DNA of 64,000 nucleotides from Desulfomonilia bacterium (lineage in GTDB: Bacteria > Desulfobacterota > Desulfomonilia > UBA1062): positions 64,001 to 128,000 of the forward strand of contig JBEKDT010000014.1 in assembly GCA_050014195.1 (NCBI GenBank), given 5' to 3'. Under the pieces are notes generated by a model. That model had not been told where the DNA came from and ran no database searches. It saw nothing but the letters and a program-made list of their open reading frames with translations. Made by a program: the position numbers and the translations under genes. Positions 3,247 through 60,866 of this stretch are shown piece by piece (within the stretch, counting starts at the first letter, position 1; each line of letters starts with the position of its first letter).

Positions 3247-4644
3247 TCATGATTGCATATACACGAGTGCCCTTTTCAGCCGGGACAGAACCACGGATTT
3301 CCCCAGGGTGACAATAATCTCAAAGATGCCCGGGGATACGGTCTTACCGGTGAGTGCTACCCGCATAGGCTGAGCGATGGTCTTAAATTTGAGTTTGTAT
3401 GTGTCAAGTATGGTTTTTACCACCTCTTCGGTCTTGGCTTTGTCTGCAAGGTCCGTCTGCTCGAACTGTTCGACGAGTGCCTTAAATACAGGGGCAAGCT
3501 CATGGGTATAGAACTGTTTTTTGAGATCTTCGGCAGGCTCCACTTCATGGAAATAGAAGTTGCCGAAATCCAGCATATCTCTAAGAGTCTTGGTGCGCTC
3601 CCGGATATCAATGACCACGTTTTTGAGATAATCCCTGCCGGGAGGCGCATATCCGCTCTTGGTGGTGAATTCTTCGAGGAGAACGGCGAGTCTATCCGGG
3701 TCTCCGGTCTTGATGTAGTGGTGGTTGAGCCAGAGGAGCTTCTCCGGGTTGAATACGGCGGCCGCCCGTCCCACATCGTGGACATCGAAATACTCGATGA
3801 GCTCATGAAGGGTGAAGATCTCCTGGTCTCCATGCGACCATGAGAGTCTGACAAGGTAATTCACCAGGGCCTCCGGGAGGTATCCCATTTCCTGGTATGC
3901 CATGACGGAGGTGGCGCCGTGCCTCTTGGAAAGCTTGGTCTTGTCAGGCCCGAGGATCATGGGGACATGGGCGAAGAAAGGCAGCGCAAATCCCAGTGCT
4001 TCATAGATCTTCACCTGCCGGGGGGTGTTGTTCACATGGTCATCGCCCCTGATCACATGGGTCATGTTCATGGTGGCATCATCGATGACGACGGTGAGGT
4101 TGTAGGTGGGCATGTTGTCCGACCGAAGCAGGATGAGATCGTCCATCTCCGCATTGTCGACGCTGATCCTGCCCTTGATGAGGTCATCGAAAGAGGTGAC
4201 TCCCATATCGGGCATGAGGAAGCGGACAACCCTGCCCGGACCGGGACCAAGGCCTTTGCCCCTGCACGTGCCGTCATATTTCGGTTTTTTCCCTTCTGCC
4301 AGGGCCCGGCTGCGTTTCCTTTCCAGTTCATCCGGGGTGCACTCGCACCAGTAGGCCTTGCCTTCATCTAAGAGCTTTTGTAAGGAGGATTTGTAGATAT
4401 CGAGTCGCTGCGACTGGTAGAAGGGACCCTCATCCCAGTCGAGGCCGAGCCATTTCATGGATTCCAGGATCTGCCGGGTATTTTCATCGGTCGAGCGTTC
4501 GGCATCGGTGTCTTCTATCCTGAGTATGAACTTCCCGCCGGAATGCCTTGCATGGAGCCATGAGAACAGGGCTGTCCTGACGCCGCCGATATGGAGTTGA
4601 CCCGTAGGTGATGGAGCGAACCGCGTTCTTATCTTGTGGGACAT
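3247..4644 (-). CDS. gltX: glutamate--tRNA ligase
   Basis: RTRFAPSPTG, HIGG, LRIEDTD, KLSKR. Confidence 0.97.
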   Translation of the reverse strand: MSHKIRTRFAPSPTGQLHIGGVRTALFSWLHARHSGGKFILRIEDTDAERSTDENTRQILESMKWLGLDWDEGPFYQSQRLDIYKSSLQKLLDEGKAYWCECTPDELERKRSRALAEGKKPKYDGTCRGKGLGPGPGRVVRFLMPDMGVTSFDDLIKGRISVDNAEMDDLILLRSDNMPTYNLTVVIDDATMNMTHVIRGDDHVNNTPRQVKIYEALGFALPFFAHVPMILGPDKTKLSKRHGATSVMAYQEMGYLPEALVNYLVRLSWSHGDQEIFTLHELIEYFDVHDVGRAAAVFNPEKLLWLNHHYIKTGDPDRLAVLLEEFTTKSGYAPPGRDYLKNVVIDIRERTKTLRDMLDFGNFYFHEVEPAEDLKKQFYTHELAPVFKALVEQFEQTDLADKAKTEEVVKTILDTYKLKFKTIAQPMRVALTGKTVSPGIFEIIVTLGKSVVLSRLKRALVYMQS

Positions 4645-4645
4645 T

Positions 4646-6565
4646 TCAGCCTCGTACCTTTTTATAGATATAATTGAGCAGCCCGCCTTCTTTCAGGATC
4701 TCGCTTTCGCGCACGGAAAGATTCAGGGTGCAGTTCAATCGTTTGCCGGAATTGAGTGTGGATACTTCTATCGGTGAAATATTGTTAAGGGCGGCATGGA
4801 TGTTATTCACCGAGACCTTGCCACCCTGGTCGAGCTCTGAATATCCCTGTTCGTCTATCCGGATAGGCAGAATCCCGAAGTTGATAAGGTTTGATCTGTG
4901 GATCCTGGCAAATGACTTGGCGAATACGGCCTTCACGCCCAGGTACATGGGGGCAAGCGCTGCATGCTCCCGAGAAGAGCCCTGGCCGTAGTTCTCGCCT
5001 GAGAGTATACAGCCGCTCCCGGCAGTCTTTGCATGGTCGAAGAACTCCTTGTCGATGCTTAAGAATACATACCGCGAGATTGCCTCGATATTTGAGCGCA
5101 AGGGCAGGATCTTGGAGCCTGCCGGCATGATATCGTCGGTGGTGATGTTGTCTTTGAGCTTCAGGAGGACCGAAAGCGTGAGCGCATCCTCCATGGGACC
5201 CCTCTTCGGCAGGGGTCGGATGTTGGGCCCCCTGCGTATCTGCACGCCGGCGGGATTTTCTGCAGGTTTTATGATCATAGAGTCATCGATAAGGAATGAA
5301 TCCGGCAGTTTTATCTCGGGGTATGCACCCAACTCCCGCGGATCAGTGAAGCTCCCCTTCAGCGCACAGGCCGTGGCCGCTTCAGGCGATGCGAGGTAGA
5401 CTTCGGCATCAGCCGTACCGGAGCGGCCTTTGAAGTTGCGGTTGAACGTCCGTACCGATACAGCCCCCGTGGAGGGGGCCTGGCCCATGCCGATGCATGG
5501 GCCGCAGGCCGTCTCCAAGACCCTTGCACCGGCCGCGATGATGTCGGTAAGACAACCGTTTGCAGCGAGCATCTCTAGGACCTGCCGTGATCCGGGCGCA
5601 ATTGAAAGGCTCACATCCGGGTGTATCTTTTTGCCTTTGAGCACAGCAGCAACAGCCATGAGGTCTTTCAGCGATGAGTTCGTGCACGAGCCGATGAGCA
5701 CCTGATCGACCTTCCTGCCGGAAAGCTCCCTTATTGTCTTTATATTGTCGGGGCTATGCGGGCAGGCAGCAAGGGGTTCGAGTGTTGAAAGGTCGATCTC
5801 GATTGTTTCGTCGTAAGCTGCCCCTTCATCTGCAGAGAGTGGTATCCATGCCGCTTCGCGGCCCTGTGCCTTCAGGAATGCACGGGTAATCTCATCGCTG
5901 GGAAAGATGGATGTGGTTGCGCCCAGCTCCGCCCCCATGTTGGTGATGGTGGCACGCTCCGGGACGCTCAAGCCTTTCACGCCAGGGCCATAGTACTCAA
6001 AGATCCTGCCGACACCTCCCTTAACGGTGAGCCTGCGCAGGATCTCCAGGATGATGTCCTTGGCGCTCACCCAGGGCCGGAGGCCGGACTTCAGGAGCAC
6101 GCCTACAACCTTGGGCCCCGGGATATTGAAGGGCATGCCTGCCATCGCGGCTGCAACGTCCAAGCCGCCGGCTCCGATAGCCAGCATCCCGATGCCTCCT
6201 CCTGTGGGTGTATGGCTGTCGGAGCCGAGCAGGGTCTTGCCGGGGATTCCGAATCGTTCAAGGTGGACCTGATGGCAGATGCCGTTTCCCGGCCTGGAGA
6301 AGTATATTCCGTATTTGTTTGCAATGTCCTTTAGGAAGCGGTGGTCGTCGGCATTTTCAAACCCGGTCTGGAGGGTGTTATGGTCCACGTAGCTCACGGA
6401 GAGCTCGGCTTTAACACGGTCCAGCCCCATGGCCTCGAACTCCAGATAGGCCATGGTTCCGGTGGCATCCTGGGTCAGTGTCTGATCGATATGAAGGGCA
6501 TACTCTTCATCAGTTGCCGCCACGAGGTGGCTCTCGATGATCTTGGCGGTCAGGGTCCGGGCCAT
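4646..6565 (-). CDS. aconitate hydratase (short, about 640-aa type)
   Basis: QDATGT, GICHQV, GSDSHT, GSCTNS, CGPCIG, NRNF, GSSREHA. Confidence 0.9.
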   Translation of the reverse strand: MARTLTAKIIESHLVAATDEEYALHIDQTLTQDATGTMAYLEFEAMGLDRVKAELSVSYVDHNTLQTGFENADDHRFLKDIANKYGIYFSRPGNGICHQVHLERFGIPGKTLLGSDSHTPTGGGIGMLAIGAGGLDVAAAMAGMPFNIPGPKVVGVLLKSGLRPWVSAKDIILEILRRLTVKGGVGRIFEYYGPGVKGLSVPERATITNMGAELGATTSIFPSDEITRAFLKAQGREAAWIPLSADEGAAYDETIEIDLSTLEPLAACPHSPDNIKTIRELSGRKVDQVLIGSCTNSSLKDLMAVAAVLKGKKIHPDVSLSIAPGSRQVLEMLAANGCLTDIIAAGARVLETACGPCIGMGQAPSTGAVSVRTFNRNFKGRSGTADAEVYLASPEAATACALKGSFTDPRELGAYPEIKLPDSFLIDDSMIIKPAENPAGVQIRRGPNIRPLPKRGPMEDALTLSVLLKLKDNITTDDIMPAGSKILPLRSNIEAISRYVFLSIDKEFFDHAKTAGSGCILSGENYGQGSSREHAALAPMYLGVKAVFAKSFARIHRSNLINFGILPIRIDEQGYSELDQGGKVSVNNIHAALNNISPIEVSTLNSGKRLNCTLNLSVRESEILKEGGLLNYIYKKVRG

Positions 6566-29094: not shown

Positions 29095-29643
29095 TTACTC
29101 GTCTTGGAGGATAACCTTTGACAAGTCTGGCCTGGCCCGAGGGAGGGTGATTTGTATTCGAGTCCCGGCAGGTCCGCTTGCAGGGTCGGCGTTTGATTCG
29201 ATGGTCAAATTGCCAGAATGTAATTTCACGGCCCCATAGGCGAACGGCAGCCCCAGGCCTGTCCCCTCACCAACGGGTTTTGTGGTGAAAAAGGGGGTGA
29301 AAAGCTTGTCCATATTCTCTCTCGAAATACCCCTGCCGGTATCTTGAATTATAATGACGACCTGGTCAACGCCACCTTGAACGCTTACAGCCAGTTCGCC
29401 TCCGTCCGGCATGGCCTCTATGGCATTGGTCTGAAGGTTCACCAGTGCCTTGAAGACCCGTTCTTCATCAATCCAAACCGAAGGGTCTGAAATATCCGTT
29501 GTCATTGATATTCGGATGTTATCCGGCTTTGGTAGGCTCCGGATGCTCTCTTCAGTCAGGGCGACGATATCCGTCTCCCTGCGTTTCAACCCCTGCAGGG
29601 CGGATTTTATATTTTCTTCATAATCAATGATATTCCTATCCAT
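29095..29643 (-). CDS. stand-alone histidine-kinase-like ATPase (HATPase_c) domain protein
   Basis: N box NLQTNAIEA, G1 DTGRGI, F box LFTPFFTTK, G2 GTGLGL; no HisKA or sensor domain. Confidence 0.8.
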   Translation of the reverse strand: MDRNIIDYEENIKSALQGLKRRETDIVALTEESIRSLPKPDNIRISMTTDISDPSVWIDEERVFKALVNLQTNAIEAMPDGGELAVSVQGGVDQVVIIIQDTGRGISRENMDKLFTPFFTTKPVGEGTGLGLPFAYGAVKLHSGNLTIESNADPASGPAGTRIQITLPRARPDLSKVILQDE

Positions 29644-52855: not shown

Positions 52856-52951
52856 GGCATCACGTTTCAGTGCATAATTCTGCATACCTACAATTTTGCG
52901 GTTTTCCAGCTTGACTGGACTTCTAGAAATTTCTATCATTTGACCGTTACA

Positions 52952-53003
52952 AAGGGATGGAGTTCCCCTGACAAACGCCCGGGCCGGGCTGATAACTCCT
53001 ACC
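52952..53003 (+). ncRNA. fluoride (crcB-motif) riboswitch
   Basis: AGGGATGGAGTTCCCCT...AAACGCCC...GGGCTGATAACTCCTAC fits the GATGGAGT...GCTGATGACTCCTAC consensus; about 60 nt upstream of the ATG. Confidence 0.88.
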
Positions 53004-53344
53004 ACGCGGCGGTAGAGTTGAAGCTGTGCGTCCGCATCATGGCCCAGGAGGTGTTTGTCTCATGACTTTCCACAGCATATTATTTGAAAGAACTGAAGAT
53101 AGCACAAAAAAAGAATCGCTTGAAGCGCCCGCCTTTTTTGTTGATTTGAATCTTGATCAGGTTATCGACACCATCACGGCCGGCAGGAAGGAATATAATT
53201 TAAAGCCGTTTTTTTACACTTCCCTGTCCGATATCGACACGATCAAGTATCGTCATGAAATAATGCAGGATCTGGAAAATAAAACGGAAGTATGTACTTT
53301 ACGCAATAATTGCTCTTTCATCCCCAATGCCTCCATCTGGTGCC

Positions 53345-53494
53345 TTACTTACTTTGGCCCTTTGATGGTTTTTTCTTTTTCAATGATTCCTTGACTGCGT
53401 CCTGCCAATCGCCATCAATTTTAAGTAATTTAGGTTTTGGACCAGGGGCCGTAATTTTGGCTCTACGCCTCTTTGTATGACAGATATCACTCAT
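53345..53494 (-). CDS. 49-aa basic passenger protein (below ORF-track cutoff)
   Basis: AAGGGAG RBS; [49 protein letters not shown]. Confidence 0.55.
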
Positions 53495-53672: not shown

Positions 53673-54086
53673 ATGAGTTTCGAGATTTTCTCTCGCAAAG
53701 CAACATATCGTGGAGTCCCGTCTGTAACGTTTACGAAGACAGGCCGAATGGCATTTAATAAGGCCGCAACTGCTATCTTTGAAAAGAATGCAGTGGAGAA
53801 CGTCCTCCTGCTGTGGGATAAAGACAAACGACTTATTGGGGTGCGGCCCATAACTAAGAAGGATAACCGGGCTTATTTTGTGAGCGCTGGGACTAGAAAA
53901 AACGGGTGTGGATTCACAGCAATGACTTTTGTTAAGTACATTGGACTTGATATTTCGAGTTCTAGGGCTTTTCCTACCCGTTGGGATGAGCTGGAAGAAA
54001 TGTTTTTGATTGAAGTGCCGGAAGAATATCTTAATAAGGATGGTGTCCCATCGAAGGGAAAAAAGAAACCAACTGAGGGAGCCTAA
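53673..54086 (+). CDS. hypothetical passenger protein (137 aa)
   Basis: GGAGGTG RBS; globular-looking sequence inside the IS; no family recognised with confidence. Confidence 0.75.
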   Translation: MSFEIFSRKATYRGVPSVTFTKTGRMAFNKAATAIFEKNAVENVLLLWDKDKRLIGVRPITKKDNRAYFVSAGTRKNGCGFTAMTFVKYIGLDISSSRAFPTRWDELEEMFLIEVPEEYLNKDGVPSKGKKKPTEGA

Positions 54087-54161
54087 AAAATGTCTGCTGT
54101 AAAGACAGAAACCCCCTGATGCTGTAACATCAGGGGGCACATCAAAGAAAGGAGGAACGAC

Positions 54162-54251
54162 ATGTGCTGTAGGGTTCATCGTTCCACCAAGAGGATTGTG
54201 GTTACAATCCGTTTAAAATGGATTGAAATCACAATTGTCTTTCCTCCATAG
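54162..54251 (+). CDS. 29-aa mini-ORF
   Basis: AAAGGAGG RBS 6 nt before ATG; MCCRVHRSTKRIVVTIRLKWIEITIVFPP; flanked by perfect 10-bp hairpins. Confidence 0.55.
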   Translation: MCCRVHRSTKRIVVTIRLKWIEITIVFPP

Positions 54252-54314
54252 GGCCTAACGGCTCTTTGGGGAAGCATGCCGGAGAGCACTGCGCTCTCCG
54301 GCCTTTAACTACAA

Positions 54315-54413
54315 GCGGGCGTGGCGGAATTGGAAGACGCGCTGGCCTTGGATGCCAGTGGGTGCCTTGCTTAAGGGATAACACCCGTGCGGGATCGAAG
54401 CCCGTCGCCCGCA
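54315..54413 (+). tRNA. atypical tRNA-like gene: Leu-type class II body with TGG (Pro) anticodon
   Basis: Acceptor GCGGGCG/CGCCCGC plus A73; D-arm GCG-GAATTGGAAGA-CGC; anticodon arm CTGGC-CTTGGAT-GCCAG; 30-nt variable arm; T-arm GCGGG-ATCGAAG-CCCGT; no encoded CCA. Confidence 0.8.
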
Positions 54414-54459
54414 TCTTTATATATAAAGATAGCATCGTTTTATCATTTTGTCAAAAATT

Positions 54460-55446
54460 TCATATAACCTTTAAAGATGTATCTTTTGGAGACTTATACA
54501 TCAACCGTTTTCCCTCAGCTGAATGTATGGCTCTGATTACACGATCACCATCATTCAATGTACGATTATTCCAAATAAAGTCAAATTGCCAGAGATAACG
54601 ATGAAGATGTTCATGGCTGACATTATGGTAGATTCCAACTATCCCACGTTTTACAACTGCGAAGGATGATTCGGCTGTATTGGTATGAACATCTCCACGA
54701 ACATATTCATGCGTGGAATGACATACTTTATCATGACCGCCCATAAAGAAGGAACCAATTCCTCTGTATGCTTTATAATCATCTGTGATAATACGTGATC
54801 TAACATCTACTTCTTGTTTTATGGCTGAATGTAATGTTTCTCCTGTAACGTCTGCTACGACACGACGTCTAATATGACCATTTCTTTCGACGGCTGCAAA
54901 TACAGGAGTTTTGCTTGTCCCGCGACCTCGTTTATGTATCTTCCCATCTCCATAACGAGGCTTACCACCTATATAGGTTTCATCACATTCGACTATTCCA
55001 TTAAGTTTTTCTGTATTAGAATCTGGTGCCATTGCATAACGGATTCTATTCATCAGAAACAATGCCGACTTGTAACTAATCTGACAATGTCGCTTAATTT
55101 CCAATGCTGCTACACCTTTCTTTGAGGTTGAGGCTCTCCAAAATGCATAACACCAATGGCGAAGATCAATCCGCGATTCTTGATATACTGTTCCAATTCT
55201 GACAGTATATTGATTGTTACAATCCCGACAACGCCACAAAAAACGCTTATTCCGCATCCCAGTTTTAGAATCACTCATTTTGTATACTTGTGTACTTCCA
55301 CAATGAACACAGGTCGGCTTATCTCCCCATCTCTGCTTTTCAAAGAACTCAACGGCTGCTAGTTCATCGCAACAAGCTAATGGCATATCTTCAATAATGT
55401 CAGATTTTGCTAAATTCGAATGGTCGATTTTTTTATTTTTCTTCAT
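54460..55446 (-). CDS. IS1595-family DDE transposase
   Basis: Zn ribbon CVHCGS...CRDC, SKKGVAALEI HTH region, VECDETYIGG, ITDD, HTNTAES, YHNVS...HLHRYL; frame intact. Confidence 0.95.
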   Translation of the reverse strand: MKKNKKIDHSNLAKSDIIEDMPLACCDELAAVEFFEKQRWGDKPTCVHCGSTQVYKMSDSKTGMRNKRFLWRCRDCNNQYTVRIGTVYQESRIDLRHWCYAFWRASTSKKGVAALEIKRHCQISYKSALFLMNRIRYAMAPDSNTEKLNGIVECDETYIGGKPRYGDGKIHKRGRGTSKTPVFAAVERNGHIRRRVVADVTGETLHSAIKQEVDVRSRIITDDYKAYRGIGSFFMGGHDKVCHSTHEYVRGDVHTNTAESSFAVVKRGIVGIYHNVSHEHLHRYLWQFDFIWNNRTLNDGDRVIRAIHSAEGKRLMYKSPKDTSLKVI

Positions 55447-55454
55447 ATATTAAT

Positions 55455-55482
55455 ATTATACTTAACGCAAAGCATTTGTCAA
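55455..55482 (-). promoter_or_regulatory. sigma70 promoter of the transposase
   Basis: TTGACA-N16-TATAAT; ATG only 8 nt past the -10 box, no RBS. Confidence 0.75.
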
Positions 55483-56845
55483 GGGGCAAATGATATTTTT
55501 TAGCGTTTGCGTAAAGTACATACTTCCGAAATAAAATTCTCTTTGAGAATATAAAAACATTTGCACAAGAAATGCGCGCAATGCGACAGCATCTTGCCCT
55601 GGTGGAAGAGCTTCACTACAAATACCACAAGGAAGGATGGTTTTTAGAAACAATAGATATTTATTGTGAAGCCGTTCATCGCCTGGTACACGAGTTAACC
55701 CTTGCAGATTTAAAATCGCGCGGCTTTTTAGCCTTCCGGGAGTATATAACGAACTATGCCAGATCCGACCATTTTATGTCCCTTTTAGCTGAAACGAAAA
55801 AGCTTAAAGCCGATTTATCCGCCGTAAAGTATTGCCTGCTCATAAAGGATAACAGCATCAAGGTTTGCACATATGAATCCGGAATTGATTACAGTGCAGA
55901 TGTGGAGCAGACATTCGAGAGATTCAAACAGGGAGCGGTGAAAGATTACCGGGTCAAATTTTCCACCGGGCCTGAAATGAACCATGTTGAAGAGAGAATA
56001 CTGGATCAGGTAGCCCGATTGTATCCCAATATATTTTTAAGTCTCGATGATTATTACGCGAGGAACGGCAATTTTCCAGATGAAACGATAGCCGTTTTCG
56101 ACCGGGAGATACAATTTTACATCGCCTATCTGGAGCATATCGCACAATTCAAGCGAGTGGGATTAAAATTTTGTTATCCGAAAATTTCTACCCAGTACAA
56201 GGAAGTGTATGATTATGAAGGATTTGATTTAGCACTGGCCAATAAACTCATGAGTGAGAACTCATCCATTGTCTGCAATGATTTCTACCTGAAAGACAAG
56301 GAACGCATATTTGTAATATCCGGTCCGAATCAGGGAGGGAAAACAACCTTCGCCCGCACCTTCGGACAGTTGCATTATCTGGCTACCATAGGTTGTCTCG
56401 TCCCAGGCAGAGAAGCACAACTCTTTTTGTTCGACAGGCTCTTTACCCATTTTGAAAAGGAGGAACACATCGAGAATCTCCGTGGTAAACTGCAGGATGA
56501 CCTCGTCAGAATCCACAAGATTCTCAATCAGGCCACATCAAACAGTATTATCATAATGAATGAAATTTTCACTTCCACAACACTAAAAGACGCTATTCTC
56601 CTGGGTAAGAGGATAATGGAAAAAATAATACAATTGGATTTGCTGTGCGTTTGCGTGACATTTATAGATGAACTGGCTTCTTTAAGTGAAAAAACCGTAA
56701 GCATGGTCAGCACGGTAGTTCCCGAAAATCCGACATTGCGAACATATAAAATAGTAAGAAGGCCTGCCGACGGACTTTCATACGCGATATCAATCGCCGA
56801 AAAGTATCGACTTACCTACGATTGTTTGAAGGAGCGGATAAAATC

Positions 56846-58417
56846 ATGAAGGCTTTCCTCATGTATAAGGATCGTGATTTTGATCTCCAGCAGGAGTTGC
56901 CATGGAATGAACAAGCATTGACACAAGACCTGGAATTAAACACACTGTTTTCTGCCATGGCCCTCGGCAACACATTTTTGTTTGAAGTGGCAAAGAACGC
57001 TGTTTTGACCGGTTTCCATAATGATCCGGACACAATACGATATCGCCAAGATATTCTAAAAGATTGTCTGAAGAACTCTTCCATTGTGAGGGATATCTAC
57101 GACATTGCTGTGGAAGCAATCGAAAGCAAGAGAAAACATTGGTATGGCATATTCAGACATGATTCTCCCACCTCGATACTGCATACTTCATTAGAAAAAA
57201 TGCAGACATTTGTGGGCCTGCTTAAAAAAATAAAGAATATTGCTGATGAACACGCCGATAAATTCGAGTCGGAAGGCTTTAGGGCGTTCTTCGCGATGTT
57301 CGAAAAAGAACTTGGCGATGAATATTTTGCAGGCGTTCAACATCATCTAAGGGCGCTCAAATTCCGCAAAGGAGTTTTGATCAGTGCTGAATTGGGAACA
57401 GGCAACAAAGGTACCAATTACATACTTCATGAAACACACGAAAAAAAGCAGAGTTGGATGGAGTGGATCTTTGCCGGAATACAGAGTTGGATGGAGCAGA
57501 TCTTTGCCAAAAAAACGACCGGTTACACCTTTTATATCAGTGAACGTGATGAAAGCGGCTTCAGGGCCTTGGCAGGATTAAGAGACAGGGGGATCAACCA
57601 CGCAGCCAATGCTCTCGCCCAATCTGGTGATCATGTTCTTAATTTCTTTATCATGTTGCGGACCGAATTGGCTTTTTACGTTGGTTGTCTGAATTTACAC
57701 GGGCACCTTGCCAAAAAAGGGGAGCCCATATCTTTCCCTCTGCCCGCGGCTCCCGGCGAACGCAGACATTCTTTTCATGGATTATACGATGTCTGTCTGG
57801 CTTTAAACCTGGAACAAAGGATTGTGGGCAACGATGTGAATGCCGACAATAAAAACCTCGTGATAATCACAGGCGCCAACCAGGGCGGCAAATCAACTTT
57901 TTTGCGAAGCATAGGTTTATCCCAATTGATGATGCAATGCGGCATGTTTGTGCCGGCTGAGTCTTTCTGTTCCAATGTCTGTGACGGTATTTTCACACAC
58001 TACAAAAGGAAAGAAGACGTTACCATGAATAGCGGGAAACTTGATGAAGAACTCGGTAGAATGAGCGCTATCGTAGACAACATAACGGCAAATCCCATGA
58101 TACTGTTAAATGAATCATTTGCCGCGACAAACGAAAGAGAAGGCTCGGAGATTTCAAGGCAGATAATGTGTGCATTATTGGAAAGGCACATCAAGATTTT
58201 CTTCGTTACTCATGTATATACATTTGCGCATGGTTTTTATGACAAAAAAATGGAAAACGCCATTTTCTTGCGGGCTGAAAGGCAAAGCGACGGAGGACGA
58301 ACTTTTAAAGTAATTGAAGGCGAACCATTGCAAACCAGCTATGGCGAAGATTTGTATAACGGGATATTCGAAACCGACGCAAGCACTAAGGTGCGGGAGG
58401 CGCTGGACAGTGAATGA
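56846..58417 (+). CDS. second MutS-related ATPase (domain V type)
   Basis: ATGA overlap with upstream gene; [40 protein letters not shown]. Confidence 0.9.
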
Positions 58418-58648: not shown

Positions 58649-59938
58649 TTATTTCTTCACGCTGTACAGAACGTCCTTACCCCTGAATACTGCACTTTCC
58701 CCTAATTCTTCTTCGATGCGCACGAGCTGGTTGTATTTGGCAAGGCGCTCGCTCCGGGAGGTTGACCCTGATTTGATTTGTCCGGTACAGAGACCGACTG
58801 CAAGGTCGGCAAGCCATGGGTCCTCGGTCTCACCCGAGCGATGGGATATGACCGTGGTGAACCCGGCCCTCTTGGCGGTTTCAATAGTTTGCATTGTCTC
58901 AGTGATCGTTCCTATCTGGTTTACCTTGATGAGTATGGAGTTGGCACAACCCTCCTCAATGCCGCGTTTCAGGTACTTCATATTGGTTACGAAGATGTCG
59001 TCGCCCACGATCTGTACTTTATTGCCAAGGCGTTTCATGAGGAGTTGCCAACCGTTCCAGTCATTTTCCGCGAGGCCGTCTTCTATGGAAACGATAGGGT
59101 ACTTCTTGACCAGCTCCTCATAAAAGTCGATCATCTCTTCAGAAGTCCTCTCGGGATCTTTTTCAGAGGCCAGGATGTATTTGCCGTCCTTATAGAACGA
59201 GCTTGCTGCAGGATCGATGGCAATTGCTATATCCTTACCCGGTTTATAGCCTGCCTTGCTGATGGCTTCCACGATGAGATCAAAGGGCTGGGTGTTATTC
59301 TTCAGATTCGGGGCGAAGCCACCCTCATCACCTACCCCTGTGCTGTAGTCATTTTTCTGGAGGATATCCCGCAGGGCATGGAACGTCTCGGCTGCGTAGC
59401 GCAGGGCTTCTCTGAAATTCGGTGCGCCGATGGGTGTGACCATGAACTCCTGGAGGTCTACATTGTTGTCTGCGTGCTTGCCCCCGTTGATGATGTTCAT
59501 CTGCGGAACCGGAAGCTCCCGGGCAAGGGCGCCGCCCAGATATCGATAGAGAGGGACACCAATGAAATTAGCAGCTGCCCTGGCTGAGGCTATGGAAACA
59601 CCTGTTGTGAGGTTGGCGCCGAGAACGGACTTGTTTTCCGTTCCGTCCAGTTCGATAAGCATGGAGTCAATGCCCGCCAGGTCCAGCACATCCATGCCGA
59701 CAAGCTTGGGTGTCACGATCTTGGTCACGTTCTCCACAGCCTTGAGTACGCCTTTGCCCCGGTATCTCTTCTTATCTTCGTCCCTCAGCTCTACGGCCTC
59801 GCTTTCCCCCTTTGATGCACCAGAAGGAACCGATGCCCTACCCATTTCACCTGTTGAAAGGTGAATGTCTATCTCAATGGTCGGATTACCCCGTGAATCT
59901 AAAATTTCCCTTGCAGCGACAGTAACAATCTTACTCAT
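58649..59938 (-). CDS. eno: enolase
   Basis: [54 protein letters not shown]. Confidence 0.98.
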
Positions 59939-60465: not shown

Positions 60466-60674
60466 AGTGCCTCCTTTTTAGCGTAAGCTGGAAAGCATAA
60501 GCGACGGCTCTACGGTAAAATGTGAAATATCATTCATGTAACGAGGCCGCCTTTGAGCGTGCCCTTGCATGCATTGAACGAATGAGGACTGTGTTCTTGA
60601 AGGGAATTGTATAATGCCAGAAGCCGGATGACTTTTAAGGGCAAGCGCCATACATTCTCCTTCAGATTTCTCTG

Positions 60675-60721
60675 ACAGGAGTCATCAGCCTACCCGGCGG
60701 TTATGGGGGACTCCATCCCTG
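60675..60721 (-). ncRNA. fluoride (crcB-motif) riboswitch
   Basis: Minus strand AGGGATGGAGTCCCCCATAACCGCCGGGTAGGCTGATGACTCCTGT, upstream of HIT and eno. Confidence 0.9.
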
Positions 60722-60866
60722 ATCTTCGTTAAATGTGTACTGTATTAAGGGTAAAGCTGTCAATCACGAGCTGGAACATTCCATTAACCTCTCCAGCCGG
60801 AAATATCATTACCCTTGAGCACGTTTTATACTCTCGCCTTACAGGTTTCTTCATTCATCAGTACAC

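Follow-up and report, generated by a model that had tools for sequence, protein, structure and literature searches.

A conserved tRNA-Leu derivative with a proline anticodon is a passenger of an IS1595 family insertion sequence

INTRODUCTION

Why should an insertion sequence (IS) carry a transfer RNA (tRNA) gene whose body points to leucine and whose anticodon points to proline? The question is raised by a 99-nucleotide (nt) gene in a 64,000-nt stretch of a Desulfomonilia bacterium genome (GenBank assembly GCA_050014195.1, contig JBEKDT010000014.1, positions 64,001 to 128,000), which we refer to as the window and by whose numbering all coordinates are given. The tRNA-like gene (54315 to 54413, plus strand) combines a Leu-type body, the anticodon UGG (54349 to 54351), a 30-nt variable arm, and A73, and it is carried by a 2,244-bp IS1595 family element that is present in a single copy in the host genome. 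Mismatched tRNAs of this sort, termed allo-tRNAs or irregular tRNAs, have been on record since 2017; their function has not been established, and the hint to it has been the presence of transposon or toxin-antitoxin genes nearby. The locus described here gives that hint a defined frame, namely, a bounded IS and a cassette that recurs across IS1595 and IS1-like elements. Our analyses indicate that the gene is a functional passenger of the element and not a decayed tRNA, and they lead us to weigh what its product might do.

RESULTS

The tRNA-like gene joins a leucine body to a proline anticodon

The Rfam tRNA model (RF00005) matched exactly positions 54315 to 54413 of the plus strand (47.3 bits, E = 5.7e-07 for the whole window), covering the model from end to end (positions 1 to 71 of 71) and exceeding its gathering score of 29 bits. 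In this alignment, the gene forms a 7-bp acceptor stem, a D stem of 3 to 4 bp, and anticodon and T stems of 5 bp each; the T stem opens with a G-U pair, the T loop reads AUCGAAG, and the discriminator base is A. The anticodon loop is CUUGGAU, in which the anticodon occupies 54349 to 54351 (T35, G36, and G37 counted along the gene), and the variable region holds a 27- to 30-nt insert. CCA is not encoded, the bases 3' of the gene being TCTTTA. The acceptor/T geometry is 7/5, position 8 being unable to pair with the base that precedes the 3' acceptor strand. When folded as a single sequence, the gene adopted a minimum free energy structure that differs from the cloverleaf (-47 kcal/mol, z = -2.13). 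ARAGORN did not call the window's gene at its default settings; with introns allowed, it reported a tRNA-Pro(tgg) with a 15-nt "intron" in two metagenomic copies (L011 and L012) whose tRNA-like genes are identical to that of the window. Elsewhere in the window, ARAGORN listed a "tRNA-???" with a two-base anticodon (29124 to 29215, plus strand) that falls below the Rfam gathering score and is probably a false positive.

Within the host genome (4.2 Mb in 29 contigs), BLAST with the 99-nt gene matched the gene itself, tRNA-Leu(UAG) (88% identity over positions 1 to 49), and tRNA-Leu(CAG) (80% over positions 8 to 51), with no tRNA-Pro among the matches. The D arm is that of the host tRNA-Leu(UAG) but for one base, the G-U before the T stem is kept as in all five host Leu genes, and the variable arm reads as a Leu arm plus an inserted hairpin of ~16 nt. 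A single A35-to-G change converts the host tRNA-Leu(UAG) loop, CUUAGGA, into CUUGGGA, which is the loop of three homologues described below; the window's CUUGGAU carries two more changes, at positions 37 and 38. CUUGGGA, G37 included, is also the loop of the host tRNA-Pro(UGG). Of the features that define tRNA-Leu, the window gene has A73, the D arm of a tRNA-Leu, and the long variable arm; what it lacks is an NAG or NAA anticodon, which would read Leu codons, UGG being found in all five distinct genes of this type. The C1-G72 pair and short variable loop of tRNA-Pro are replaced by G1-C72 and the 30-nt arm. Judged by these similarities, the gene derives from a tRNA-Leu(UAG)-type gene.

The gene is surplus to the host's own set, since ARAGORN found 52 host tRNA genes that already include five for Leu and three for Pro, one of the latter with the anticodon UGG. 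CCA is encoded in seven of the eight host Leu and Pro genes that were printed, and three host genes of the PolyA_pol/CCA type could encode enzymes that add it. Bacterial leucyl-tRNA synthetase (LeuRS) recognizes A73, the D-loop and tertiary set with its placement of G18 and G19, A15-U48, and the type II arm, and it does not read the anticodon. The bacterial type of prolyl-tRNA synthetase (ProRS) requires G72 (with C1-G72), and its further identity elements are G35, G36, A73, G37, and a short variable loop, A73 being common to the Leu and Pro sets. Because the host ProRS has a tRNA_edit insert in a 583-amino-acid (aa) frame and no ProRS-C_1 domain, we assign it to the bacterial type, and C72 of the tRNA-like gene would then argue against charging by this enzyme.

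The element around the gene has perfectly complementary 22-nt terminal inverted repeats (53285 to 53306 and 55507 to 55528), and two directly read copies of the 8-bp target-site duplication AAATAAAA flank them (53277 to 53284 and 55529 to 55536). Its 328-aa transposase (54460 to 55446, minus strand) matches the Pfam domains DDE_Tnp_IS1595 (3e-36) and, at the N terminus, Zn_ribbon_IS1595 (3e-11), as well as NCBIfam transpos_IS1595 (1.2e-51, 175.6 bits against a cutoff of 75). The transposase domains and the inverted repeats with an 8-bp duplication that mark the IS1595 family are thus all present. Between the repeats lie, in order, a 49-aa open reading frame (ORF), the gene for a 137-aa protein that we call P0001, a 228-nt structured spacer, the tRNA-like gene, a 46-nt spacer, and the transposase gene. 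The same 22-mer bounds four related elements (L014, L013, L016, and L028). A search for further UGG-type copies in 121 additional genomes from the class of the host did not find the element with the query used and matched only the 5' halves of those genomes' own tRNA-Leu genes, and a degenerate 24-nt pattern of the UGG-type gene found no match in viral contigs.

These results bear out the original prediction, made without database searches, on nearly every anatomical point. It had described a 99-nt cloverleaf with paired stems, a TGG anticodon, a long variable arm, an AUCGAAG T loop, and no CCA, and the end-to-end Rfam alignment returned the same coordinates, stem layout, and anticodon. Its placement of the gene inside an IS1595 element agrees with the repeats, the duplication, and the transposase domains. 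The Leu-like body that it proposed is matched by the host BLAST results, in which Leu genes alone appear, and by A73 and the D arm, and the Pro features that it found missing are indeed missing. Its expectation that ARAGORN would return a Leu isotype with TGG held for the anticodon, with introns allowed, and failed for the isotype, which was given as Pro, and for the default run, which was silent.

Conservation of the UGG-type gene points to purifying selection

With P0001 as an anchor, we fetched 45 metagenome loci and 5 loci from metagenome-assembled genomes (MAGs) and searched them by BLAST and then by a covariance model derived from the resulting matches. A 99-nt gene that is 81 to 85% identical to that of the window occupies the same place in L014, L018, L020, and L028, so that the UGG-type sample consists of five distinct sequences, all of them metagenomic save the window's. 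The homologues scored 44.4 to 49.9 bits against RF00005, with L014 falling under the gathering score.

Across the five sequences, 68 of the 99 columns are invariant, among them U8, A14, G18, G19, U33, the anticodon bases, G53, C56, C61, and A73. The D loop is likewise invariant, and the 5' halves are near-identical throughout. The predicted partners are paired in 97.1% of 140 pair cells, compared with 37.9 to 49.2% when the partners are slid. In the variable arm, the inner stem covaries, two of its pairs having changed on both sides, and the outer stem does not vary. Conservation is lowest in the T loop, which reads AUCGAAG, AUCAUAC, UCCGAAU, UCCAAAU, or UUCAAGU; at position 37, the window has A, three homologues have G, and the fourth has U.

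The UGG-type genes share 81 to 86% pairwise identity, whereas the third codon positions of P0001 and the transposase share 34 to 49% in the same pairs. Because the gene is so much more alike than these neutral positions, the comparison indicates that it is under purifying selection and that simple decay is excluded. The argument against decay in the original prediction had relied on intact stems; it is strengthened by this difference, by the retention of both the stems and UGG, and by the homologues, which carry no random anticodons but show UGG in five of five, 97.1% pairing, and covariation in the inner variable-arm stem.

A cassette with odd tRNA genes recurs in related elements

We next compared the 36 distinct loci in which at least 400 nt follow the P0001 homologue; duplicates (L011, L012, L040, L051, L052, and L056) and loci that were too short (L013, L015, L016, L017, L027, L029, L036, L037, and L054) had been removed. 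At least 22 of the 36 have a tRNA-like gene on the same strand within ~650 nt of the P0001 homologue, a lower bound that includes two loci (L038 and L044) seen by eye only. The UGG, Leu-type body of the window, L014, L018, L020, and L028 is one of several kinds. Seven loci have a short type I body with GCU, ACU, CGA, or UGC (L019, L021, L022, L023, L025, L026, and L060), six have a long-arm body with UAU (L031, L033, L039, L045, L049, and L057), one has an 8/4 body with GAC (L035), two have an 8/4 body with UGC (L038 and L044, again by eye), and one has an irregular tRNA-like gene (L024). No tRNA was recognized in the other 14 (L030, L032, L034, L041, L042, L043, L046, L047, L048, L050, L053, L055, L058, and L059), and when 16 loci without a tRNA were rescanned with Rfam at higher sensitivity, no further tRNA appeared at the cassette position.

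The UAU group repeats the pattern seen with UGG. Compensatory changes are found in 14 of the 20 predicted pairs of its six genes and the loop UUAUA is constant, which argues that the UAU anticodon is under selection through a wide turnover of the stems. Five of these six genes share a T loop with C55. Acceptor stems of 8 bp are predicted in L035, L045, L038, L044, L033, L019, and L025, and CCA is encoded in five of the relatives' tRNA-like genes. By the rules of seryl-tRNA synthetase (SerRS), a short type I body cannot be a tRNA-Ser, and a long-arm body with G73 is Ser-like rather than Ile-like. By such rules, most of the cassette's tRNA bodies would mismatch their anticodons.

The transposase gene 3' of the cassette is of the IS1595 family in 9 distinct loci and encodes an IS1-like DDE transposase in 13. 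Inverted repeats bound the entire cassette in L014 (with the window's 22-mer), L040, L049, L057, L058, and L048. By this synteny, the conserved mobile unit consists of a P0001 family gene and a structured leader with a mini-ORF, followed by an odd tRNA and then a transposase of the IS1595 or IS1-like kind. MAG records place it in Terriglobia, in Thermodesulfovibrionales, and in one MAG labelled a deltaproteobacterium.

Some elements bear additional cargo. L014 has an extra DUF3800 gene (4084 to 4924) with a DUF3800-VI RNA motif in front of it (Rfam, 65.8 bits), and DUF3800-like ORFs are also found inside the L031 and L057 elements. MqsA-type antitoxin genes stand beside the cassette in L030 (5416 to 5961), L039 (3121 to 3624), and L040 (5312 to 5815), a cargo that parallels the published link between allo-tRNAs and toxin-antitoxin loci. 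Ordinary tRNA genes adjoin the cassette in L050 to L052 (Asp), L034, and L020, and a normal tRNA-Leu(CAG) lies just upstream of it in L060 (3354 to 3440), all 87 printed bases being those of the host tRNA-Leu(CAG); these elements may have a preference for insertion sites close to tRNA genes. In the Terriglobia MAG locus L059, the region ~1.9 kb before the P0001 homologue holds an Acido-Lenti-1 RNA motif (2120 to 2165; Rfam, 42.3 bits with a gathering score of 37).

P0001 belongs to a large family without a name

P0001 (137 aa; 53673 to 54086, plus strand) is a member of an unnamed conserved family. We found 43 homologues in a collection clustered at 90% and 1285 clusters at E <= 0.001 in a 50%-clustered library of 1.84 billion proteins. 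No family in Pfam (even at E <= 5), NCBIfam, or PADLOC matched it, nor did any PDB entry by sequence profile, and every cluster retrieved from the ESM Atlas was of the "hypothetical protein" kind, with some being phage rich. Among 400 other genomes of the host's phylum, there were five weak matches (21 to 30% identity).

An AlphaFold model (pLDDT, 77) predicts a two-repeat beta-barrel. Foldseek returned no match to this model at E <= 0.001, and VIA-align gave weak matches to MraZ (1n0e; Z = 6.0, root mean square deviation of 3.3 over 87 residues) and to plant B3 domains (Z = 4.2 to 4.5). Two homologues have a C-terminal C2H2 zinc finger. On the model's fold, P0001 is possibly a nucleic acid-binding regulator.

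Distant homologues on plasmids (15 records, 28 to 35% identity) lie near an Abi family gene or a "putative T/A toxin," a context that is uninformative. Two of ~35% identity are on actinobacterial plasmids (L061, 2501 to 2917; L062, 2501 to 2944); one of them is labelled "putative plasmid addiction protein" and stands beside a "putative T/A toxin," and the other lies downstream of an Abi family gene.

The leader holds conserved hairpins and a candidate mini-ORF

The spacer between P0001 and the tRNA-like gene folds into a series of conserved hairpins, for which a consensus was computed from the alignment of the UGG-type loci (alignment A4). A GC-rich 10-bp hairpin without a T run (54278 to 54302, plus strand) ends 12 nt 5' of the tRNA-like gene and is kept in all five loci. 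Against Rfam, the leader matched no family at threshold, and the two subthreshold rows were at chance level.

A candidate mini-ORF of 29 codons and a stop (54162 to 54251, plus strand) overlaps the conserved hairpins. It has a GGAGG at 54151 to 54155, 6 nt before its ATG, and it ends 63 nt before the tRNA-like gene. Its frame, start, Shine-Dalgarno sequence, and final CCT CCA TAG are kept in five of the five UGG group loci, and its third positions vary synonymously among them. The Shine-Dalgarno sequence could pair with the CCUCC of the final codons, and the stretch could be read from its sequence either as a coding peptide or as a structured RNA.

After P0001 in tRNA-less relatives, there are longer homologous mini-ORFs of 35 to 40 codons that end E-P-(P/S/L)-stop, and because of these the leader and mini-ORF are, by comparison of the loci, older and more general than the tRNA. 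Such mini-ORFs, with a hydrophobic N terminus, lie 150 to 260 nt past the P0001 homologue in L042, L043, L046, L047, L048, L050, L053, L055, and L058; they terminate in the hairpin-embedded GAGCCTYCATAGGCTC, followed by TAGTATA...CTGTCAA, and could either encode a small peptide or form a structured RNA. Other subgroups have mini-ORFs that contain R-P-P-P, and several begin M-(I-M)-R. In L025, the mini-ORF, ~45 to 70 nt past the stop of the P0001 homologue, is reduced to ATG AGA AGA TAA with a strong Shine-Dalgarno sequence, a design that we take to resemble the tRNA-sequestering minigenes of CreT and lambda bar.

In all five UGG group loci, the last sense codon of the mini-ORF is CCA, the codon that UGG reads, and this match is unexplained. 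A codon match is also seen in the UAU loci L031, L049, and L057 (ATA) and in L035 (GTC after PPP). A rule for the whole family, by which the mini-ORF would contain the codon of the neighboring tRNA, was rejected, as it fails in L039, L033, L045, L060, L025, L021, and L023. The suggestion in the original prediction that the RNA relieves stalling at poly-Pro fared unevenly; a Pro-Pro-stop mini-ORF does lie upstream, but poly-Pro mini-ORFs also stand beside tRNAs with UAU and GAC.

A convergent promoter faces the tRNA-like gene

On the minus strand, a sigma-70-type promoter (TTGACA-17-TATCTT, TG extended; 54426 to 54454) is aimed antisense into the tRNA-like gene, its -10 element ending 12 nt from the tRNA 3' end. 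The motif TTGACA-17/18-TAnnnT lies 12 to 15 nt from the tRNA end in all five UGG-type loci and also in L033, L021, and L060. In alignment A4, TTTGTCAA is invariant in this promoter region, and the surrounding spacer is otherwise variable (50 to 67% identity). Scanning of 19 tRNA-bearing loci identified such a promoter in 8 of them, and a ninth case (L025) was seen by eye.

At the far side of the leader, a terminator scan found a 12-bp hairpin with the form of an intrinsic terminator for the minus strand (54111 to 54138), its T-rich tail being at 54101 to 54110. The tract 3' of this hairpin is T rich on the minus strand only; in alignment A4, by eye, compensatory changes preserve the hairpin, and all five loci have a T-rich tail on the minus strand. 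An antisense RNA of ~315 nt, running from the convergent promoter to this terminator, is therefore plausible.

A promoter scan found no plus-strand promoter directly 5' of the tRNA-like gene, so the gene is probably cotranscribed with P0001. In the leader helices, G-U and A-C combinations number 14 and 10, respectively, a count that leaves the strand undecided. For the tRNA part, the invariant tertiary bases, the G-U pairs, and the covariance model, which gave 116.8 bits on the plus strand versus 14.6 bits on the minus strand, favor the plus strand.

Other features of the element and its insertion site

The 49-aa ORF at the left end of the element (53345 to 53494, minus strand) is small, basic, and oriented divergently from the P0001 gene. 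By tblastn, it has counterparts at the same place in L013 and L014 (63%), L020 (67%), L028 (79% over 28 aa), L016, and L018, and it matched no family in NCBIfam or PADLOC. At the other end, the transposase gene is preceded by a perfect TTGACA-16-TATAAT promoter (55455 to 55482, minus strand; 12 of 12 matches in the promoter scan).

The element lies in a MutS-like host gene, whose interrupted 5' part (53026 to 53284, plus strand) follows a fluoride riboswitch (52944 to 53008, plus strand). By hand count, the MutS-like frame resumes in register into a MutS_V ORF (55572 to 56849) once one copy of the duplication is removed; the insertion is clean and probably recent, and it probably inactivates the first gene under the control of the riboswitch. 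A second MutS_V ORF (56822 to 58417) completes the MutS-like pair 3' of this riboswitch. The window has another fluoride riboswitch (60669 to 60729, minus strand) before an enolase gene (58649 to 59938, minus strand), the two riboswitches scoring 44.5 and 45.2 bits against Rfam.

DISCUSSION

What the RNA might do

Our leading reading, which we hold tentatively, is that the gene encodes a leucine-charged Pro-to-Leu missense tRNA that serves the IS element and whose dosage is restrained. It would have arisen from a tRNA-Leu(UAG)-type ancestor when an A35-to-G change produced UGG and a hairpin of ~16 nt was gained in the variable arm. The RNA would be transcribed together with P0001 and the leader, excised by the host's tRNA-processing enzymes, and completed with CCA by a host nucleotidyltransferase. 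LeuRS, being blind to the anticodon, would attach leucine, and the charged RNA would pair with CCA and CCG proline codons. Because such missense decoding would be harmful, its level would be held low by the conserved convergent promoter, from which an antisense RNA would start a few bases past the tRNA 3' end, and P0001 may add a further layer of control. The odd tRNA would thus act not as a housekeeping gene but as a dosage-controlled effector for the element, through addiction-like or stress-linked mistranslation.

Several observations weigh against this proposal. The sample of UGG-type genes is five sequences, nearly all of them metagenomic, and among these the T loop is noncanonical in four (A54 in the window, A54 and U58 in L014, and C55 in L018 and L020) and position 37 varies (A, G, G, G, and U). 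The tRNA is dispensable for the cassette, with 14 of 36 loci having the protein and leader and no recognizable tRNA, and the conserved antisense promoter is equally compatible with a minus-strand RNA as the product. The element's own CCA and CCG codons stand at strongly conserved Pro positions, with no sign that a Pro-to-Leu reading is avoided or exploited. Finally, UAU-type relatives that were turned into amber suppressors gave no suppression in Escherichia coli and two of them were lethal, according to the sections of Mukai 2017 (PMC5389517) on these genes, whose authors proposed a nontranslational role for them.

We also considered whether the tRNA recodes the element's own genes. This idea was rejected because the CCN codons of the UGG loci stand at conserved Pro, not Leu, positions (Pro in 35, 30, 29, and 35 of ~37 sequences at four such positions); a single column ran the opposite way, with CCA set against Leu in four of the five others. 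In the relatives, the ATA codons of UAU loci fall at V/L/I positions and the AGY codons of GCU loci at S/T positions, and recoding was rejected for them as well.

About equally likely as the missense tRNA is a tRNA-shaped RNA that does not decode, acting either as a decoy for a tRNA-directed enzyme (an anticodon nuclease, a toxin, or a modification enzyme) or as the RNA partner of P0001, with the anticodon loop and the enlarged variable arm as binding surfaces. The noncanonical T loops, shared in their C55 form by five of the six UAU-type relatives, would fit such a role. So would the variable arm, whose invariant outer stem, covarying inner stem, and A-rich bulge resemble a selected handle, and so would the failure of the element's genes to be shielded from a Pro-to-Leu reading. 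The MqsA-like antitoxin genes of the L030, L039, and L040 elements and the zinc finger of two P0001 homologues point the same way, but the window's element encodes no partner nuclease or toxin, and the weak fold assignment of P0001 (Z = 6.0) makes its binding a prediction only. Moreover, A73, the D loop, G18, G19, C56, and G53-C61 are invariant and would be needless for a bare anticodon-loop decoy, and several relatives encode CCA. We consider it unlikely, by comparison, that the functional product is the ~315-nt minus-strand RNA (from 54454-54426 to 54138-54101), with the tRNA shape owed mainly to ancestry. Such an RNA would be antisense to the tRNA, leader, and mini-ORF and would regulate the P0001 operon or transposition. 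The persistence of TTGACA-17/18-TAnnnT in all five UGG-type loci within a spacer of 50 to 67% identity is what it would predict, as is a terminator hairpin (54111 to 54138) with its T-rich tail on the minus strand only, and four unpaired plus-strand cells look by eye like C-A in alignment A2 and would be G-U on the minus strand. Set against these are the invariant U8, A14, G18, G19, U33, C56, and A73, which matter for a plus-strand tRNA only, the cloverleaf G-U pairs, which would break on the minus strand, the covariance model scores (14.6 versus 116.8 bits), the relatives' CCA, which is encoded on the plus strand, and the recognition of the promoter in only 8 of 19 tRNA-bearing loci (plus L025 by eye).

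A still less likely explanation is that the gene simply supplies more tRNA-Pro(UGG). Recognition of G35, G36, and A73 would let ProRS charge it despite the Leu body, no mistranslation would result, and the extra tRNA would serve, for example, the Pro-Pro-stop mini-ORF or Pro-rich IS proteins. In its favor, three of the five genes have the very loop of the host tRNA-Pro(UGG), G37 included, A73 belongs to both identity sets, the mini-ORF ends CCT CCA TAG in five of five loci, and the element's conserved prolines use CCA and CCG. The host ProRS is nevertheless of the type that needs G72, and the RNA has G1-C72; the host already owns a tRNA-Pro(UGG); poly-Pro mini-ORFs occur beside UAU and GAC tRNAs too; and the cassette's relatives are themselves mismatched, the short type I GCU and ACU bodies not being tRNA-Ser by the SerRS rule. 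The least probable of the readings is that a captured tRNA-Leu is hitchhiking or decaying or that it serves as an RNase P/Z processing signal or insulator between convergent genes. The gene does lie between convergent transcription units, is dispensable in 14 of 36 loci, has a degenerate T loop, and does not encode CCA, but its 81 to 86% identity compared with 34 to 49% at neutral sites and its invariant anticodon and tertiary bases speak against a relic, as does the retention of UAU through compensatory stem turnover. Random capture would not be expected to yield a systematic mismatch of body and anticodon across the family, and the five near-identical 5' halves indicate one element lineage rather than repeated capture.

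The missense tRNA could also be part of a larger design, which we regard as rather doubtful: a "tRNA weapon" cassette spread by IS elements, in which the miswired tRNA would be an RNA toxin or stress switch that works by proteome-wide missense decoding, P0001 and the antisense RNA would be its antidote or throttle, and the mini-ORF, whose Pro-Pro-stop end includes the CCA codon that the tRNA reads, would be a ribosome-borne sensor of tRNA activity. If this were true, addiction or regulatory modules would gain a new class, with a tRNA as the toxin, and mistranslation would have a natural interphylum route.

Relation to known systems

A literature search found nothing that joins IS1595 with tRNA-like genes or missense suppressors with transposable elements. 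Among the matches listed, the papers on IS1595 passenger genes do not mention tRNA in their titles or abstracts, and none of those on mistranslation was relevant by title or abstract; the terms "transpos," "mobile genetic," and "allo-tRNA" are all absent from a 2024 review of tRNAs in mistranslation. IS1595 family elements with passenger genes ("transporter IS") were reportedly described by Siguier et al. in 2009. Like passenger-bearing members of that family, the window's element has a transposase with a zinc ribbon, short repeats, an 8-bp duplication, and nontransposase cargo; unlike other IS1595 passengers, this cargo is a mismatched tRNA gene, an unnamed protein family, and a leader.

The nearest relatives are the allo-tRNAs and irregular tRNAs of Acidobacteria and of soil and sediment metagenomes. 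The portions of Mukai 2017 (PMC5389517) that describe them report 8/4 and 9/3 allo-tRNAs whose anticodons correspond to 35 codons, UAU being the commonest, and irregular forms of which some are active in E. coli, inserting Ser or Ala at noncognate codons; the corresponding portions of the Krahn 2020 review (PMC7609411) restate this picture. The window gene resembles these (PMC5389517, PMC7609411) in being a surplus gene with a long arm whose identity elements misfit its anticodon. The frequent linkage of allo-tRNAs to transposons and toxin-antitoxin loci noted in PMC5389517 is likewise mirrored by its location inside an IS, and cassette relatives with 8-bp acceptor stems (L035, L045, L038, L044, L033, L019, and L025) are closer still in form. 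The C55 T arm GGTCCGAATCC of the UAU group is present in a UAU entry of the supplementary table of Mukai 2017 (PMC5389517). Of the features of allo-tRNAs, the window gene thus shows the anticodon mismatch and the transposon association and lacks the 8/4 or 9/3 split. In contrast to the 8/4 or 9/3 genes of PMC5389517, it is 7/5, with a Leu-type rather than Ser-type body, A73, UGG, and a 30-nt two-stem arm. Neither "UGG" nor the window's anticodon-arm 10-mer is found in the searchable text of the supplementary file of Mukai 2017 (PMC5389517), and the P0001 family, leader mini-ORF, antisense promoter, and IS1595/IS1 ends are unmentioned in the portions of its text on gene context. That an enlarged arm need not abolish function is suggested by the passages of Mukai 2020 on hairpin-tagged variable arms, which can remain active in translation.

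Dedicated mistranslating tRNAs offer a second parallel. As summarized in Schuntermann 2023 (PMC10404621), bacteria have such tRNAs that are toxic in E. coli; the tRNA-ProX/ProRSx systems of Streptomyces and Kitasatospora described there place Asn, Thr, or Ala anticodons on Pro bodies, beside a special ProRS isoform. The window gene shares with tRNA-ProX, which mistranslates and is toxic in E. coli (PMC10404621), a dual identity in which one body bears another's anticodon. Unlike tRNA-ProX, it has a Leu body with a Pro anticodon and stands inside an insertion sequence, with no synthetase gene. Among human missense variants of tRNA-Leu, -Ser, and -Ala, according to the parts of PMC11415595 on anticodon mutants, the same route is seen, i.e., one change, here UAG to UGG, combined with an anticodon-blind synthetase. 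Those variants are sporadic alleles of housekeeping genes (as presented in the same parts of PMC11415595), whereas the lineage described here is conserved, mobile, elaborated, and purified by selection.

On the sequence evidence, then, the window gene is a new member of the transposon-linked irregular tRNAs, one with canonical geometry, a Leu origin, and a UGG anticodon. It adds a new form to them, a 7/5 tRNA-Leu derivative that a single mutation separates from a normal anticodon and that is under strong purifying selection. Should the RNA decode, no Pro-to-Leu mistranslator borne by a transposon would have preceded it; otherwise, it would be a tRNA-shaped regulatory or decoy RNA of insertion sequences, allied with a large uncharacterized protein family (1285 clusters).

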